A stretch of DNA of 64,000 nt, from assembly GCA_965238275.1 (NCBI GenBank), contig OZ250186.1, forward strand, positions 512,001-576,000. Direction: 5' to 3'. The position numbers and the translations under genes are program-made. The notes beneath the pieces are model-generated. The model did not search any database. It was given only the letters and a program-made list of their open reading frames with translations, and was not told the DNA's origin. Source of the stretch: Nitrosopumilus sp. (GTDB taxonomy: Archaea; Thermoproteota; Nitrososphaeria; Nitrososphaerales; Nitrosopumilaceae). The number at the start of each line of letters is the position of its first letter. Position 1 is the first letter of the stretch. Below, piece after piece: positions 8,047-63,528 of this stretch.

Positions 8047-8249
8047 TTCTTATTCACATTCTGAATTAATAGAACGCATGAGTAATATCTGATTTTTTAA
8101 ATCCGCCACGGGCATGTTAACACTGCTGTCAAGCTGTAAGTTGTACCTCACATGACGTTCATGTCATCGATGTACAAGAAAGGCAACCGGTCGGATGAAC
8201 ATCGCAATCACCCAAACCCATTTCAAATTCATGAAAGTACGCTTCTCTT

Positions 8250-9918
8250 AGATCCTATGCAGAATGTGCCTGACACGGTAAATCATAAAATCGTGTCCAA
8301 TCTGCGCTAGGCGTGACCATATCTGATAATCCTGCCTGCCACATATTTTACAAATTTGTCTTGTGCGTCCCTGTGAAAAATCTGGTTTCCAGTATTGGAA
8401 AATAAGGCACGTTCTGTAGATGTGCGGCATCCGTCCCCCGGGGGCGGCAGGTTGTTTCATGGGGGAATGGGGGAAATTTGCACAAATATTGGAATTCCGT
8501 GCGCGACATTCCTGCACTGCGGGGTGCCGCCGCGTCTTTCACTCAGTTCAGGTGGCGGCTCGTGCCGCCCTGCCTCAGAGGCGCGCCCTTTCTTCTGCCA
8601 GCCTCTTGAGAAGGTCCGCGTCCCTGAGTTTTATTTCGTCCCACATCAGATCCTGGTTTACCATTCCTGCAATCGCGTTGAGCTCGTCGTTGTACTCCTC
8701 TTCGGTGCCGTCGTACGGGTCAGTCAGCCTCTTGTACTGCTTCAGGTTCCCTATGACGTGCTCTATGGCCACCCGGGAGCTGTTTACCCTCTGGTTGTAG
8801 GCGCGCTGCTTCTTTGTCAGGCCACCGGTCTTTTTGTCGGCACCAGGCTTTTTCTTGTACGGGTGCCTGATGTGCCATCCTGGATATTCCTCCCTTGTCC
8901 CCTGGTAGCCCTTGTCTGTCAGGACGTCTGGCTTTTCCTTTTCGGGCACGTCCTTCTGGCCCATCCTTGCAGTGATGATTCCAAGGTTTGGCGGATCCTC
9001 GTTGAGCAGGGTCTTGTCGTGGACGCTGCCCGGAACTGTCTTGCTTATCGCAACTATCACGCGGCGCTTGTTGATCACGATGTTGGTGTTGTACGTGTGT
9101 GCCTTCTTCTTGCCAGAGTACGTCTTTTTGCGCCTCTCCTTGTCCGCGGATCTTCTGACCCGGTTGTGCGTGCCGTCCACCATCAGTTCTCCTCCCCTCC
9201 TGCCCGGTATTATCTTCTTGCTCTCCTCAAGCGTCCTGGCCTTTTGCGCAGCCTCGCTGATTTTGCGCGGCGCCGTGTCTATCTCGCCGAGCAGCCTGGT
9301 CATCAACGGGAGATACCTGGAGACTGTGGCCTGATCAACGCCAAGCATCGTGGCAAGGGCTTCCTGCGGTATGCTCAGCCTTGACCGAAACAGCCACAGC
9401 AGGTACGCGTGCCTCAGGGGCAGGATGCGCCTGCTTCCGGAGTTTTTTGATCTGCTCCCAACTTCCCAAAAGAGCGCCGCTTCGCTCCAAAAGCTCCTTG
9501 AGGCGGTTCAGCGTGTGGTCAAACTTTTCCGGGGTGCGCAGGGTCATGGCGTGCAGGAATTCAGGATATTTTATGATGTCGTCAAGAAACCTAGACGTGA
9601 CGGTCCAGTGATCAGCCAGGCGTTCCTTGAGGGCCTCGCTCTTCTGCCGGTCTGTCCTGCGCGCCTCCCTGAGGGCTCTGATCCTCTGCCTGTGGAGTTC
9701 TCCTGATTCCCTGAGTTCCTCGTTTTCCTGCCGTATTCTCTGCACGATCGGTTCTGCCAACATTGCCATCACGGTGTGACGTAAAACTCGCCGATCTTAA
9801 CGTTTCGGTTACCGTTCCGGGATTGGCATGTTTTACAGCTCCGTGGATATTTGGCTGCATGCGGGAATAACCCAATTTAATTCAGTTTTTTAAATCAGGC
9901 ACATTCTGCATGAGATCT
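8250..9918 (-). mobile_element. IS5-family (DDE_Tnp_4-type) insertion sequence, complete ends
   Basis: 24-bp TIRs agatcctatgcagaatgtgcctga (8250-8273) / tcaggcacattctgcatgagatct (9895-9918), 2 mismatches; 3-bp TSD ctt at 8247-8249 and 9919-9921. Confidence 0.9.
8575..9772 (-). pseudogene. IS5-family transposase, frameshifted
   Basis: VDGT, YSGKKKAH, HD, DKGYQG, RVAIEHVIGNLK motifs; HTH (QEALATMLGVDQATVSRY) lies in a different frame from the N-terminal ORF, shift near 9470-9490. Confidence 0.85.
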
Positions 9919-24757: not shown

Positions 24758-25538
24758 TTGTTGGAGAAGACCAAAGTATATGACGGAAGGATTCTGGGCC
24801 TGAGCCTCTACAAGGGAGAGATCGAGGGAAGGCAGGTCACGCGCGAGGTAATCGAGCATCGCGGGGCGGCAGCCATTTTGGCATTTGACGGGGACGACAT
24901 AATCATGGTCAGGCAGCACAGGTTCCCCCACGGGTATGTCCTGGAGATTCCTACTTTGTCGTCCCGCAGGAACGCTCGAGGAGGGAGAGGAGCCGCATGA
25001 GACCAGACAGGTACTGCTGAACCAAATCGTATTGTCGTTGATCGCGTTTCTTTGTAGTCATTAGGCGATGCCGTGATCTGCCGATCCATATCTTTTGTCA
25101 TCCGGGGGTATATGTCTCTAGGACACACCCGCCTGCCACAGATTAAATAATAACACGCCAGAGTCACCACCGTTGTTGGAGAAGACCAAAGTATATGACG
25201 GAAGGATTCTGGGCCTGAGCCTCTACAAGGGAGAGATCGAGGAGGGAGAGGAGCCGGTAAAATGCGCATTCAGGGAGCTCAAAGAGGAGACAGGATACGC
25301 CGCAGAGACCATGACCCCGCTAATCACATACTATCCCTCAATCGGCTACAACATGGAGGCAATACACTGCTTTGTGGCATCCGGCCTCAGAAAGACATCC
25401 GGGCAAGACCTCGATGAGGACGAGATACTCTCGGTGGTAAGGATGAGGCCAGGGGAGATTCTTGAGGGGATACGGTCAGGCAAGATTCAGGACTCCAAGA
25501 CCATATGCGCGGTGCTGATGCATCTTGCGCAGTCCTGA
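24758..25538 (+). pseudogene. NUDIX hydrolase (ADP-ribose pyrophosphatase-like), as two partial duplicated copies
   Basis: Copy 1 has REVIEH..AAAI..VRQHR..LEIP then a 13-nt insertion; copy 2 has the Nudix box RELKEETGY but lacks the middle; may be an assembly artefact. Confidence 0.8.
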
Positions 25539-45469: not shown

Positions 45470-46186
45470 CCTATTCCAATACCCCGAAACCGGTCACGAA
45501 ACGCGAGGCGTCGTCCTCGTAGCACAGGAACCACCTGCCGTCGTCAAGCTACTTGTAGTCGGTGTGCCACATGGAATTGGAGTGCTCGCGCTCGTAGCGG
45601 ATCCACTTGGGCGCTGGCTCTTCTTTGGCTGGGTGTCTGCAAAACCGGCATCCTTCAATATTTTGTGCAGGGCGTTGTGTGGAATATGTATTCCGGAAAG
45701 TGACTTTATGATGCGCTCCAGGGACGCGGCCCCGAATACCTCGTTTGAGGCAGCCGAGAGGACCGCCGAATGATCCCGCCTGCCGGGCGCGCACTTTTTG
45801 GGCCTGCCCATGGGGGGCCGGATACGTAATCTTGTCCTTGTCCTTGTACCTCTTCTGCAGCTTTTGGACCCATCTGACCGAGACGCCCATGCTTGCTGCA
45901 ATCTCCTTGTTGTGGGCATTCTTGCGTTTTTGTTGGATGATCCATTCGACTTTGGCCTGGTCCAGTTTTTTCATTACTCGCACTCTCCGTCTTCCTATAT
46001 GACGCCACGCGGCCGTGCGTCTCCACCGACGGGCCCACACACCGCCGTTTCCAGTAAGGGACAGGCTGACTGCATTTCTCAGGAATTTGGCACGCGATGC
46101 CATGCCGCCGATGATGTCTGTCATTGGGCGTGTCCACCCCGGGCTGGAGCCTCATGTGGGGGGTGAACGACTTTCGGGACTATACA
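45470..46186 (-). mobile_element. IS481-family remnant (frameshifted, truncated transposase)
   Basis: MKKLDQAKVEWII..GVSVRWVQKL HTH; WIRYEREHSNSMWHTDYK..DDASR rve motif across frames; probable left end TGTATAGTCCCGAAAG (minus strand from 46186). Confidence 0.82.
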
Positions 46187-46491
46187 GAAACTTTGTTGCG
46201 TTCTATTGTACCGAAACTAAGCATTTCGGAAACTTTGTTGCGTTCTATTGTACCGAAACTAAGCATTTCGGAAACTTTGTTGCGTTCTATTGTACCGAAA
46301 CTAAGCATTTCGGAAACTTTGTTGCGTTCTATTGTACCGAAACTAAGCATTTCGGAAACTTTGTTGCGTTCTATTGTACCGAAACTAAGCATTTCGGAAA
46401 CTTTGTTGCGTTCTATTGTACCGAAACTAAGCATTTCGGAAACTTTGTTGCGTTCTATTGTACCGAAACTAAGCATTTCGGAAACTTTGTT
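46187..46491. repeat. Perfect tandem array, 42 bp x7 plus 11-bp partial
   Basis: Unit gaaactttgttgcgttctattgtaccgaaactaagcatttcg starting at 46187, 46229 ... 46439; partial at 46481. Confidence 0.98.
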
Positions 46492-46537
46492 TTATGTCCT
46501 CAGTTCCATCCAAGTAATTTAAGCCGTGATTACTATT

Positions 46538-46756
46538 GTAAGTGTTTCGTTTTCACGTAGAGGCGGTTTGAATATTCTCCAGTCGGATCCCTGATGAGCG
46601 ATTCCACCGCGATGCGCGGTAGTATGCCTTGCTTGTGACAGGTGCGGACAACTGAGACTAATGCCGAAGAGACACGCATTCCCTCAGATACTGACAGCTT
46701 GTGCCGCACGTTCCTCTGCAGTACAACGGCATCGCGTATGTCCCGTTCTGCAGCCC
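46538..46756 (-). mobile_element. IS66-family remnant (transposase C-terminus and right end)
   Basis: Minus strand reads AAERDIRDAVVLQRNVRHKL...SVVRTCHKQG; GTAAG-type end at 46538. Confidence 0.7.
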
Positions 46757-46769
46757 GGATCTGTAGGCG

Positions 46770-47215
46770 TCATGATGTACATGTGTACATGGCACATGAT
46801 CAGACACCGGCACGTCTGACACGCGCCTCCTAGCGGAGCCTCCGCACAGCGTCTTGATCAGATCGACGGTGCTGCACTGTTGAGATGGTTTACCACAGTG
46901 TACTCCTATGCCTCTTGTACTGTTTCGCTTCCGCACGCTACCCTCTTGTTGTAGGCGCGCTGCTTCTTTGTCAGGCCGCCGGTCTTTTTGTCGGCTCCAC
47001 GCTTTTTGTGTGCCTGATTGCCATCCGCTGGTAGATCAGGGTGGTAATGATTCGTCCTATTAGGGTCTTGCACGCTGCCCGGAACGGTCTTGTCTGGACA
47101 ACGTAGTCGCTTGGAACACCATCAGTCGAGATGTACAGCGCCGTGCCTCTGACAGTGTGGAGTTGATATGCTCAGCCTTGTGTGCAGGTACGCGTGCCTC
47201 AACAGGATGCGCCTT
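46770..47215. other. Mosaic of IS5 transposase words and the 5' part of the downstream gene
   Basis: 46939-46999 matches 8785-8845 (3 mismatches); 47093-47168 is a gapped copy of 47329-47386. Confidence 0.8.
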
Positions 47216-47245
47216 TTTAGTTGTGCATGGCATGATACCATTGAA

Positions 47246-47740
47246 ATGGCACTCCAGAGCAAGATGACAGTGTATGCGGCACTAGTAGGTGTGTTTGCGC
47301 TGATGGGTGGAATCGTATATTATGCAAGTCTGGACAACGAGTCGCTGGAACAGGTCGAGATCAGGCTTGACAGTGTGGAGTTGATAGATGTGAACAACTT
47401 GAAGAACCAGGCAAAGCTTGACGTCGTCTTTCTTGTAAAGAATCCAAGCGAGAAGACGTTTACAGTCGCAGTTATAGGGTATCAGCTGTATAGCGATGGA
47501 AAGCAGCTGGGTTCGGGCCAGTACTCCGTGGTGGACATAGCACTGCCGGGAAGGGCCGTCTTTTATCCGGGTGCCGAGATTCCGTTGAAGAGCATCTTTG
47601 TCCTCTCAAAGTCCGATGTAGGTGCAGAGACGTATGAGGCAATAATAAACAATGAGATCGGCAGCTTTACTGTAGAGGGAATGATAACAACGCAGACCTC
47701 GTGGAGTACCATTGACAAAGAGTTCAGTACGGGAATCTGA
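47246..47740 (+). CDS. LEA_2/WHy-like membrane-anchored protein
   Basis: N-terminal TM; V.F.VKNPS..T..V..I.YQLY.DG..LGSG pattern. Confidence 0.75.
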   Translation: MALQSKMTVYAALVGVFALMGGIVYYASLDNESLEQVEIRLDSVELIDVNNLKNQAKLDVVFLVKNPSEKTFTVAVIGYQLYSDGKQLGSGQYSVVDIALPGRAVFYPGAEIPLKSIFVLSKSDVGAETYEAIINNEIGSFTVEGMITTQTSWSTIDKEFSTGI

Positions 47741-47748
47741 GTGAAGAG

Positions 47749-47822
47749 TGGGCCGAGTGAGATTCGAACTCACGATCACCGCCGTGTCGAGGCGGTATCC
47801 TAACCAGCTAGACTACCGGCCC
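47749..47822 (-). tRNA. tRNA-Val(GAC)
   Basis: GGGCCGG acceptor; CCGCC-TCGACAC-GGCGG anticodon arm; TTCGAAT T-loop. Confidence 0.96.
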
Positions 47823-47884
47823 ATTGAAGTAAATGGCCGGACGATGACATTATTAACGTTTAACAGAACGGGGATGCGTTACAC

Positions 47885-48598
47885 TTGACAGGCGACTTTA
47901 CCGAGGAGGAGAAGAGGGGATTCTACAAGACCGTCTATTCCAGAAGGGATGTAAGATCCAGTTTTACGCCAGGGCCCATAAGCGACGAGATTCTCTCAAG
48001 GATACTCCATGCCGCACACCACGCCCCGTCGGTGGGATTCTCCCAGCCATGGAACTTTATCCTGATAAAGGACGCCGGGACAAAGAGACGGATCAAGGCA
48101 TCATTTGAAGAGGAGAGGGACAGATCGTCAGGGATGGTACAGGAGGGGCCCAGAAGGTCAAAGTATCTCTCATTGAAGCTGGAGGGAATCATCGAGTCCC
48201 CGGTAAACCTCTGCGTGACGTATGATCCTACAAAATTTGGCCCGTTTGTAATAGGAAGGACGAGCATTCCGGAGGCCGGGCTGTACAGCGTATGCTGTGC
48301 GATCCAGAACCTGTGGCTGGCTGCAAGGGTCGAGGGGATCGGAGTGGGCTGGGTCAGCATCCTGTCAAATCAGACGCTGAGAAGCGCCCTGGCACTGCCA
48401 GAGCATGTCGTGCCGGTTGCATACCTGTGCCTCGGGCATGTCAGCGACTTTGCACAGAGGCCGGATCTTGAGACTGCCGGCTGGCTGCCAAGGCTTGATC
48501 TAAAGGACGTGATATACTTTGAGAGATGGAACGACAGCAAGGGCGAGGGCTGGAACGGTATTCGGGAGATGATCAGGGACGGCGTGGATCGTATCTGA
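47885..48598 (+). CDS. bluB: 5,6-dimethylbenzimidazole synthase (nitroreductase family)
   Basis: RRDVR, AAHHAPSVGFSQPWNF, LKLEGI, YSVCCAIQNLWLAAR.EG.GVGWVS. Confidence 0.92.
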   Translation: MTGDFTEEEKRGFYKTVYSRRDVRSSFTPGPISDEILSRILHAAHHAPSVGFSQPWNFILIKDAGTKRRIKASFEEERDRSSGMVQEGPRRSKYLSLKLEGIIESPVNLCVTYDPTKFGPFVIGRTSIPEAGLYSVCCAIQNLWLAARVEGIGVGWVSILSNQTLRSALALPEHVVPVAYLCLGHVSDFAQRPDLETAGWLPRLDLKDVIYFERWNDSKGEGWNGIREMIRDGVDRI

Positions 48599-48603
48599 GA
48601 TTC

Positions 48604-50718
48604 TCACATCTCGACTATTACTGCCGCCCTTTCAGACTCTTCCAGATCCAGCCGTATTGCATCCATGATCTTCGAAGATGACGTAAGGCTGGAATAGTCA
48701 GAGAGTTTCAGATCGTTGAGGCAGAACACCTTGGGTGCAACCTCGGACCGCCTGGACTCCAGGAATTCATCAAGTTCCTCGATTACCGATATCCTTCCAC
48801 CCTGCATGATCCTGCCGTTCTCCAGGGTAAGCTTGGGTTTGCCGTACCTGTCCATCACCAGAATAAAGTGCCGGTTCTTTCTGCTGAAGAGCTTTCTGAC
48901 CTCCACATGGCCGGTAAAGACAAGGTAGTGATCAGTCTCATAACTCAGATCAATCAGATCCTCCGGGATCCCAATGACCTCGCTTGCCCTGATCCTTGCA
49001 TCATCTAGTGTGAAGATATTCTTTGATGTGTCTACACTATCCAGTTCCACATTTCCGACTGCGGTGACGCGCAGCAGCGCCTTTTCAGGTATGTACTGGC
49101 TGTTGATGACTACGGATTCTGGAACCGCGCCCTTGTCCACTAGCATGGCATGAATCTTCTTGGTCACCAGACCAATCTTTTCGGGGGTCGGATCATCCAT
49201 GGTCTGCTCTATCTCCTCCTGAAGCATGGAGGATGCAACGCCGATGGAGGAGATCACGTCGGCGTGATCGGCCTTTTCATAGGAGAGTCCCATCTGCTTT
49301 GCAACAAACGGAATCAGAACCGACGCGCCGCCGCCGCCGCCTATCAGCCGGACCGAGCTGTTCAGTTTGAACTCCTTCATGATCTTGGAGATGGTCTTTG
49401 TAATCTCAAAGGAGGCAGTCAGGATTATGGACATTGCCGCCTCATGGTATGGCACGCCCATGTGTTTTCCGAGTATTTTAAGGGCAGTCTTTGCAGATTC
49501 CTGGTTTCCAAAGGAATAGTCTCCTGCGTCGATCATCTCAAGGGCGTTTGCCGCGCACGTGTTTGTGATGGCGTATGTTCCGTTCCTGCATCTGACGGCC
49601 ACGTACTCCTCGGAGTCGTTTTCCCGGGGCTTTATTGAGACTATCTCCCCGGTCTTTAGGTCTTCGGGGTCTGCAAAGCAGGAGTATTTCAGGCCCGCGA
49701 TGTGGGCGCTTCTTGGCCCCACCTGGGAGACTCTGTTCTTGCTCAGGGAGACCATGCTGCCGCCGGCAACCCCCAGAATCCGCACATCCATGGAACGGAT
49801 GCATGTGGGATGGTTGTTCACTGTGACATAGCGGATCTCGGGTTTTCCGTTTCGGATTATGCAGATGTTCGTACTGGTGCCGCCGACCTCGACAAAGATG
49901 CCGTTTGTGACCTTGAGGTAGAGCAGGGCACCTGCGACGCTTGCAGCCGGGCCTGACAGGACTGTCAGGATGGGTTTTGTCCGAAACGTATCCATGCTGG
50001 TAACGCCGCCGTCTCCCTTCATTATCATCAGGGGCGCGGCAACGCCGATCTTTCTGATCGCCTCCTCGATGTAGTCTGCCACCTGGAATGTCCTTGGCAG
50101 GACGCTGGCATTTACTGCCGCAGTCAGGGTTCGGATCTCCAGACCGTAGACGCCGGAGAGTTCGTGTGAGCCTGTCGAGGGTATGCCGTGCTTGGAGGAG
50201 GTATTCATTACAAAGAGCTCGTTGGACGGATCGTCCACGCCAAAGGCCTCGGTTGCAACTATCACCTCGGCACCCCTTGATTTGAGCCGGTCAACGGAAC
50301 CTGCCACCTCGTCTTCGGTAATCAGGTGGGACGTGTCCAGAAACTCGTGGAATGTTGTAATGTTGCGGTTTGCATCTGACATGTTGCGAAGGTCTGTGCG
50401 CTTTATTACGTCCTTTTTTGAGGGGCCGACGCCCATTGCTATTATCCCCACACGGGAGGTGTCAGATTCCAGAAGGGCGTTTATGGCCTGCGTGGTGCTG
50501 TGCGAGATTAGCTCAATGTCGTTTATGTCGATTCTTGACTGTTTCAGAATGTCTGTAAGAACATGCACTATTCCCTCAGAGACGCCCCGCTCTGACCTGT
50601 GGGTGGTAGGAAGTGTGGATTTTGAGAGGATGGCGCCTGTCCGCACATCTATGGCTACTGCCTTGGTAAACGTTCCTCCCACGTCTATGCCAACGCGGAT
50701 TCTCTGTCTACTTGACAT
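48604..50718 (-). CDS. Hydantoinase/oxoprolinase-family (ASKHA) protein
   Basis: GIDVGGTFT, HSTTQAINALLE, LSGPAAS, EVGGTSTNI. Confidence 0.88.
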   Translation of the reverse strand: MSSRQRIRVGIDVGGTFTKAVAIDVRTGAILSKSTLPTTHRSERGVSEGIVHVLTDILKQSRIDINDIELISHSTTQAINALLESDTSRVGIIAMGVGPSKKDVIKRTDLRNMSDANRNITTFHEFLDTSHLITEDEVAGSVDRLKSRGAEVIVATEAFGVDDPSNELFVMNTSSKHGIPSTGSHELSGVYGLEIRTLTAAVNASVLPRTFQVADYIEEAIRKIGVAAPLMIMKGDGGVTSMDTFRTKPILTVLSGPAASVAGALLYLKVTNGIFVEVGGTSTNICIIRNGKPEIRYVTVNNHPTCIRSMDVRILGVAGGSMVSLSKNRVSQVGPRSAHIAGLKYSCFADPEDLKTGEIVSIKPRENDSEEYVAVRCRNGTYAITNTCAANALEMIDAGDYSFGNQESAKTALKILGKHMGVPYHEAAMSIILTASFEITKTISKIMKEFKLNSSVRLIGGGGGASVLIPFVAKQMGLSYEKADHADVISSIGVASSMLQEEIEQTMDDPTPEKIGLVTKKIHAMLVDKGAVPESVVINSQYIPEKALLRVTAVGNVELDSVDTSKNIFTLDDARIRASEVIGIPEDLIDLSYETDHYLVFTGHVEVRKLFSRKNRHFILVMDRYGKPKLTLENGRIMQGGRISVIEELDEFLESRRSEVAPKVFCLNDLKLSDYSSLTSSSKIMDAIRLDLEESERAAVIVEM

Positions 50719-61937: not shown

Positions 61938-63528
61938 AGTGCCTCACGCAGGGTCTCTGCAATAAATCTGATGTCCCTTGTGGTGACCTGCGGATGAACC
62001 GGCAGGGAAAGCACGCGTGATGCGGCCCTCTCCGTGTTGGGAAGACGGACATCAGACCTGTACAGTGGGGTTCTGTGGACAGGTGTGGGATAGTATGATG
62101 CAGCGCCGATCCCTGCGTCGTTGAGTCTCCTCAGAAGCTGGTTGCGCCCACGGACGGCGATGGTATACAGGTACCAGTTGACGTCCTGATCCTTTTGCTG
62201 GCAGGGAGGGGTGACTTTGAGATCAGATATCATGCCAGAGAGGAGTTTGGCATTGCGCCTTCTTGACTTTAGGAATCCGGGCAGCCTTTTCATCTGGACT
62301 GTCGCAATCGCAGCACTGATCTCAGGCAGGCGCATGTTCAGGCCGGGGATTCTGGTGTCGTATCCGCGGACCATTCCGTGGTTTCTAATCATAAGCAGCC
62401 GGTCCCGGAGCCTCCTGCTGCCAGTTACGACAAAACCTCCCTCTCCGGAAGTCATCACCTTTGCAGGATACATGCTGTAGCATCCCATCTCAAAGAAGGT
62501 GCCTGCATGCCTCCCCTTGTAGGTGGAGCCCAGGGCCTGTGCCGAGTCCTCTATGACGGGGATGCAGTACCTGGCAGATATCTCCGAGAGTCCCTCCACA
62601 TCTGCCACATGCCCGTAGAGGTGGACGGGGATGATGGCGCGGGTCTTTTTGGTGATCTTTGCCCGGAGATCCTCCACATCCACAGTATACTCCCCATTTG
62701 CAATATCCACAAAGACCGGCGTCGCGCCGGTGGAGGCTCCGCGAACCCAGTGAGCAAATCAGAGATATCGCTCCTACGCAGGGACGTAGTGACGGAGTTC
62801 GAGAAGTTTAAGAAAACGATGTACAAGACAAATGCCGAACTCACCAAGAAGGTGACGCTGCTCGAGGAAAACGACCGCCTGACCCTGGAGAACAGGATAC
62901 CGCAGGAGGGCAAATACGAGAACCCCAAACCAGTACTTCGTCTCCTGGCCCCACATCAGAAGGCGAAGGCGCCGGAGACAAGACCCGCAAGGGACCGCCG
63001 GCAGGACACGCCGGCCAGTGCATGCCGTCCATTGTGGAGTGCCGCCTGCAGGGCCGCAGTGCCGGAGTTGACTGCGACTGCATATCTTGATCCCGTGAAG
63101 GATGCAGCTGCCTTCTCAAAATCCTGAACGTGTGTACCTCCCTCCCTTGCAGACGATGTAAGGGCGCCGCTCCTGAGCACGGAGACGGCAGCGGAGATCT
63201 CCTTTTTGCCTATCATGGGGGTGTTGATCAAGCCACCCGAACAATATCAGAAGGTTTCTGTACCCGCAGTGGCAGCGTGCAGTACTTCGTCTCCTGGCCC
63301 CACATCCAGTGCATGGAGTGCCGCCTGCAGGGCCGCAGTGCCGGAGTTGACTGCGACTGCATATCTTGATCCCGTGAAGGATGCAGCTGCCTTCTCAAAA
63401 TCCTGAACGTGTGTACCTCCCTCCCTTGCAGACGATGTAAGGGCGCCGCTCCTGAGCACGGAGACGGCAGCGGAGATCTCCTTTTTGCCTATCATGGGGG
63501 TGTTGATTGCAATTCTCAACGGTGTCAT
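61934..63528 (-). pseudogene. DegT/DnrJ/EryC1/StrS sugar aminotransferase, interrupted and 5'-duplicated
   Basis: NSGTAAL, VGPGDEV, PVHLYG, IEDSAQA, SMYPAK.MTSGEGG; 62740-63280 contains duplicates and foreign sequence; may be an assembly artefact. Confidence 0.85.

Follow-up and report, generated by a model that had tools for sequence, protein, structure and literature searches.

The locus and its insertion sequences

The window, by which we mean the whole stretch of 64,000 nucleotides that was analysed, is part of a genome assembled as a single contig of 2.217 Mb. In the region of interest it carries, from left to right, a left flank, a composite stretch called here the woven patch, a conserved T-rich upstream region, an intact gene for a protein of 164 aa and a tRNA gene (Table 1). 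The DNA of the 164-aa gene is 66-87% identical across the genus. Its product gave no Pfam match, even at E-values up to 10, which leaves the "LEA-like" label attached to it in an initial annotation of this DNA unsupported.

The left neighbourhood is a pile of insertion sequence (IS) relics. A truncated transposase N-terminus with weak helix-turn-helix matches is encoded at 45549-46124 on the minus strand, and the left flank itself holds, at 46552-46754, a 5' fragment of an ISC-related element that is 84% identical to genome positions 2152631-2152832. Between the two lies a perfect tandem array (46187-46491; 7.3 copies of a 42-bp unit, 100% identity), which begins at the end of a truncated IS fragment (45478-46189; identity to four other copies 85-87%) and whose unit occurs nowhere else in the genome.

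For a genome of 2.2 Mb the IS load is very high, with 226 repeat loci of at least 700 bp amounting to 331 kb (about 15%) and falling into some 25 families that have at least three members. ISA, which supplies most words of the patch, is an IS5-type element of 1682 bp present in about 13 copies. The transposase of its window copy matches DDE_Tnp_4 (3.4e-25) and DDE_Tnp_1 (2e-14) in Pfam and is encoded on the minus strand by two overlapping frames, 9335-9772 (145 aa) and 8575-9348 (257 aa); full copies of ISA show 3-bp target duplications (ATG, ATG and AAG). ISB measures 1214 bp and has about 9 copies, the reference copy lying at genome 1404762-1405975; an isolated terminal fragment of 138 nt, 100% identical to the full copies, is found in the window at 24995-25132. 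At genome 1682780-1685677 an ISA copy is nested in ISB (ISB position about 804, ATG target duplication), and nowhere else do the two elements adjoin. Finally, ISC, an IS of 1650 bp, is the word donor of a second patch of the window.

Table 1. Positions in the window of the woven patch, its parts, its surroundings and related features
Feature	Position	Strand	Remarks
Full-length ISA copy	8249..9918	-	Copy used for comparison in the initial annotation
Left flank	46500..46806	.	Confirmed by independent contigs; ends in the ancestral bases ATCAGACA
Woven patch	46807..47213	.	407 nt replacing the three bases AGG of the empty allele
ISB words	46807..46883	+	Covers ISB about 1035-1135; two deletions, of 1 nt and 28 nt
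Compressed collinear ISA words	46886..47213	+	Covers ISA 398-1176
Second, interrupted copy of gene positions 47328-47386	47092..47168	+	Interleaved with ISA words 922-931 and 1014-1024
Right flank, conserved T-rich upstream region of the gene	47214..47245	+	Homology with relatives begins exactly at 47214
Conserved intact 164-aa gene	47246..47740	+	ORF; hydrophobic N-terminal stretch
Authentic copy of the woven-in gene words	47328..47386	+	Inside the conserved gene; covered by contigs of all four runs
tRNA-Val (GAC)	47748..47822	-	ARAGORN
Second patch	62738..63278	+	ISC words 88-1631 compressed into 541 nt

Composition of the woven patch

Exact collinear words from three sources, ISA (389-1176), ISB (1045-1135) and the downstream gene (47267-47386), cover 358 of the 407 nt of the patch, against 133±15 nt in shuffled sequences and 142±16 nt (maximum 174) in random 407-mers of the genome. 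For ISA alone, words of at least 8 nt were chained against the master copy at genome 1071856-1073537; the chain amounts to 244 nt in 16 words and maps 46857-47214 of the window onto ISA 389-1176, while 100 shuffles gave 52.7±10.6 nt with a maximum of 86. The collinear IS5 words described in the initial annotation are thus real and far above chance, and the compression it had seen (some 740 bp of IS in some 320 bp) is borne out, with about 790 nt of IS lying within about 360 nt. All ISA words are letter-perfect to the major ISA subfamily, that is, not one substitution occurs in 244 nt that are broken by more than 15 skips. The longest of them is an exact word of 69 nt (46939-47007 = ISA 529-597). 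It had been reported as a block of 61 bp with three mismatches: the block is there, but the mismatches vanish against the major subfamily, the count having arisen because the comparison was made with the more divergent copy of the window.

The start of the patch had been placed at 46899, which has to be corrected to 46807, as the first 77 nt belong to a second IS, ISB, that had gone unnoticed. BLAST aligned 46806-46856 to ISB with 98% identity and one gap and 46861-46883 with 100% identity; the exact words measure 40 nt (46817-46856 = ISB 1045-1084) and 23 nt (46861-46883 = ISB 1113-1135). The words of the neighbouring gene were also confirmed: they are 12, 7, 8 and 19 nt long and keep the order of the authentic copy, and their chain (k=7) reaches 54 nt against 15.7±6.5 nt in 200 shuffles. 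They are spaced roughly evenly along the IS, 120 nt of gene being set against about 690 nt of IS. Two other measures were of little use here. The longest common subsequence between patch and right flank was uninformative (shuffles already reach about 89%) because the patch is more than twice as long as that flank, and local alignments with near-free gap extension over-explain any sequence, for which reason they were kept only for contrast with ordinary diverged fragments. Under the same permissive settings, the ordinary old IS fragments of this genome show 69-166 substitutions and balanced small indels.

Only internal parts of the IS are represented. Neither IS termini nor terminal inverted repeats were found in the patch when the ISA ends were compared, and no IS terminus adjoins 46806 or 47214, in the patch or among the listed loose ends of the contigs described below. 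There is no 3-bp target duplication around the patch, the AGG of the empty allele being missing and not doubled, and there is no DDE transposase frame, the longest ORFs coding for 49-57 aa in mixed frames. As a unit the patch is single copy, since BLAST of 46500-47900 against the whole genome returned the self match only. Short similarities are present at both outer junctions: the left flank closes with bases similar to ISB about 1002-1015, and the right flank opens with bases similar to ISA about 1187-1205.

The patch is neither an IS copy nor a miniature derivative of one. Its main word donor carries the two DDE domains and the 3-bp target duplication of the IS5 family, whereas the patch has no inverted repeats, target duplication or frame. 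We consider it highly improbable that the patch is a natural remnant, either an old IS worn by many small deletions or a miniature element left by abortive gap repair, although the genome is full of IS fragments and internally deleted transposon derivatives with filler DNA are documented in PMC3814204. In the same source, transposon miniaturisation (Ac to Ds, Ozma to MITEs) is described as internal loss, sometimes with template-switched filler, and gap-repair derivatives as keeping both terminal repeats, having one or few junctions with 6-8 bp of microhomology and being able to amplify (PMC3814204). The likeness to such products of abortive gap repair or MMEJ lies in the loss of internal transposon parts. 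The patch differs from them, and from miniature or internally deleted transposons in general, in lacking termini, in having more than 15 junctions instead of few, with filler at many of these, and one copy instead of several, and in combining words of two IS families with words of the flanking gene. As to wear, the flanks are identical to those of strains with an empty site, which leaves no time for decay, and the earlier opinion that ordinary decay does not produce such a pattern is upheld by the complete lack of substitutions in 244 nt despite more than 15 deletions, by the single copy and by the missing termini.

The empty site in independent contigs and in relatives

Public runs containing the surrounding 6 kb were collected, and Logan contigs of four of them (X1, X3, X4 and X8, from four studies) were placed on 46500-48700; these runs possibly stem from samples other than that of the assembly, and rare variants are lost in contigs. 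In X3 and X4, which belong to different studies, one contig each joins 46806 through AGG to 47214. The X3 contig covers 46500-46806 with one difference and the X4 contig 46531-46806 with one deletion, and to the right of the junction they run to 47776 and 47788, respectively, with no difference at all; over the roughly 870 nt of flank each shows 0-1 differences. These contigs prove that the empty allele occurs in what is essentially the assembled strain. Contigs of X8 and X1 also begin at 47214, the X8 sequence upstream of this position ending in the short junction motif of the empty allele, and contigs of all four runs start or resume there.

A junction specific to the patch occurs in no contig of the four runs, whose samples are possibly not those of the assembly. 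The patch is covered only by high-depth contigs of genuine IS, which diverge from the window at the edges of words and leave loose ends at 46856, 46939, 47007, 47092 and 47201. Over 47092-47168 the mean word depth is 0 for X4 and 0.9-9 for X1, X3 and X8, the IS pieces ending at 47092; stretches such as 47018-47165 have no cover in X4, and gaps of this kind were not counted as evidence by themselves. The silence of the contigs on the patch is not proof of its absence, because the runs may be other samples and rare variants are dropped. Similarly, a 32-mer specific to the patch (47150-47181) had 0 matches in public collections of metagenome and genome contigs and a 40-mer of the right flank (47216-47255) had 0 matches in the metagenome collection, blanks that say little because these collections may lack records near this genome. 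Contig joints at 47281-47429, 47466-47747/47749 and 47594-47748 were attributed to other organisms or repeats, since their sides measure only 30-41 nt and their depth is very high. At 47239, a loose end of X3 belongs to a contig with an upstream sequence like the one in less closely related genomes of the genus (G005 and G013 type), because of which this run may contain more than one species of the genus.

The region 46500-48600 was searched in 30 relatives and matched in 17 same-genus genomes, 13 of which align from exactly query position 715, that is, window position 47214. The junction could be read in three of the six relative loci inspected. In G017, the closest relative (87% identity), the junction motif is that of the empty allele, and the two more distant ones show another upstream sequence followed by the same T-rich start. 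Together with the contigs of X3 and X4, the G017 junction and the alignments starting at 47214 show that the empty site (46806-AGG-47214) is a real and ancestral allele, whose AGG is replaced by the 407 nt.

Similar patches and the origin of the weave

In a scan of 25 repeat families that left full copies aside, exact words in collinear order and interrupted by two or more large skips were detected at nine sites; the pattern thus recurs at comparable sites of the same assembly. One of them is the second patch of the window, in which the ISC chain reaches 325 nt against 50.7±10.4 nt. It contains two exact copies of its right flank, one of 27 nt (62931-62957 = 63280-63306) and one of 194 nt (63035-63228 = 63314-63507). 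Synteny with the sister species G017 holds as far as 62741 and resumes at 63280, the two blocks being separated there by 35 nt; relative to G017, 62738-63278 is thus exactly an insertion, the site being empty in that species. From this comparison, it looks like a genuine insertion that was later garbled. A compressed IS site at genome 941595-942364 includes 151 nt of left-flank words. At genome 1232678-1233151, 13 exact words (401 nt) with short fillers and no IS termini represent about 1550 nt of IS in about 540 nt.

Weaving of flank words passed the threshold at only three of the nine sites tested, five having none; at the woven patch it stands at about 4.9 sd, and one of the three flagged sites (F00) is doubtful because its element has internal repeats. 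The woven-in flank copies at three sites span 173, 228 and 225 nt, which suggests a fixed window or chunk size.

On these grounds the woven patch is most likely a consensus artefact, in which misaligned sequences with and without IS DNA were merged. The judgement rests on the exact words, their monotone order, the even spread of the gene words and the duplicated flank of similar length at several sites, and an assembly error is likely because independent data show a clean site without the patch. The patch most likely exists as such in no cell and is most likely not a real feature. It has three traits in common with the consensus or polishing errors that arise in assemblies at structurally heterogeneous places, as in mixed populations where an IS is present or absent: the garble is local, dominated by deletions and limited to IS sites, independent data offer a clean alternative, and the pattern recurs across the assembly. 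A review advises the use of single-colony DNA to limit heterogeneity and mentions ambiguity driven by IS (PMC13577107). A limited literature search found no printed description of the exact signature, in which words of two or three sources are woven in register and a flank is duplicated.

The inputs of such a merge would be reads or drafts carrying IS DNA, together with others in which the plain site leads on to the gene. During consensus building, for example of the block-wise or graph type, these non-homologous sequences would be superimposed and merged block by block. The merge would keep exact and ordered words of each source, drop most of the longer source and duplicate the flank within the patch; the even spacing of gene words along the IS would be the product of a forced global alignment. 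Under this reading, some members of the sequenced population would have an IS inserted at the site. The rest of the assembly is clean, its IS copies being 99-100% identical and almost without indels, so a consensus failure would have to be local.

The initial annotation had proposed such a blend of IS-inserted and empty alleles. The proposal remains preferable to a real mosaic, given the empty and ancestral allele, the lack of any independent contig with a junction of the patch and the recurrence; two IS families in one patch are unexplained by a simple blend of two alleles and would need a third input or a chimeric draft path. Two further findings speak against an artefact, namely that only internal IS parts are present (ISA 389-1176, ISB 1035-1135), no full IS allele having been seen at the site, and that flank weaving is limited to the few sites mentioned above.

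Within the artefact reading, it is possible, if rather unlikely, that no IS polymorphism was involved and that the true sequence is simply the empty site, either because IS reads from other loci were recruited via the left flank, which is rich in repeats, or because the draft path was chimeric. This variant would account for the missing IS termini, for the mixture of ISA and ISB, which elsewhere adjoin only as the nest at genome 1682780-1685677, for the position of the patch next to a pile of IS fragments and a tandem array, and for the fact that the independent runs show the empty allele only. It fits less well with the second patch, which spans nearly the whole IS (ISC 88-1631), the corresponding site of the sister species being empty, and with the three bases AGG, which would suit a 3-bp target duplication of ISA.

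It is improbable, though less so than a worn remnant, that the patch is a real mosaic carried by single molecules. A break would have been repaired by a polymerase that switched templates more than 25 times at microhomologies, with IS copies and the neighbouring gene as templates, in a process of the MMBIR, FoSTeS or templated-insertion type recurring at IS sites. For the patches as a group, a process of this sort would amount to breaks at IS sites followed by a poorly processive polymerase hopping dozens of times between IS-bearing and IS-free copies of the chromosome in an IS-laden, possibly polyploid archaeal symbiont, leaving weaves of IS and flank in register. Mechanisms of these three types are listed in the discussion of PMC3814204. 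Every word is indeed a perfect copy of an existing template, the words are collinear, both outer junctions show short similarity and the pattern recurs in several IS families; in addition, the patch could be present in the assembled strain itself, the contigs coming from other or unidentified samples. The likeness to serial template switching lies in the patchwork of short tracts from near or distant templates. Break repair by template switching, however, is generally described with a few switches and longer tracts, whereas the patch would require dozens of switches within 400 nt, several-fold more, with tracts down to 6-10 nt. Its order is moreover monotone in all three templates and its gene words are evenly spread, which are traits of an alignment and not of a polymerase; the patch junction is found in no independent contig, and the 32-mer had 0 matches in two public collections that possibly lack near records. 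The resemblance to templated-insertion repair is therefore only superficial.

This single-contig assembly appears to hold several garbled patches at IS sites, the two of the window being joined by six or more candidates in the rest of the genome. They would enter annotations as odd IS relics or would disturb promoters, and they would mislead studies of IS decay; their relevance is mainly one of curation. They may also mark IS insertions that vary within the sequenced population, which bears on the rate of IS mobility in this lineage. If real molecules carried the patches, a repair process not yet described and a new route of IS inactivation would be indicated; the evidence speaks against this.

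Two weaker candidates can be set aside or noted in passing: the ISA words at genome 446271-446352 are not significant (chain 61 against a shuffle maximum of 73), and at genome 108968-109288 only 38 nt lie in words. ISB words were detected, apart from the scan of repeat families, at genome 213524-213614. Further sites of compressed IS, from other families, lie at genome 1237503-1237923, 1653819-1654700, 1869422-1869599 and 1983128-1983791.
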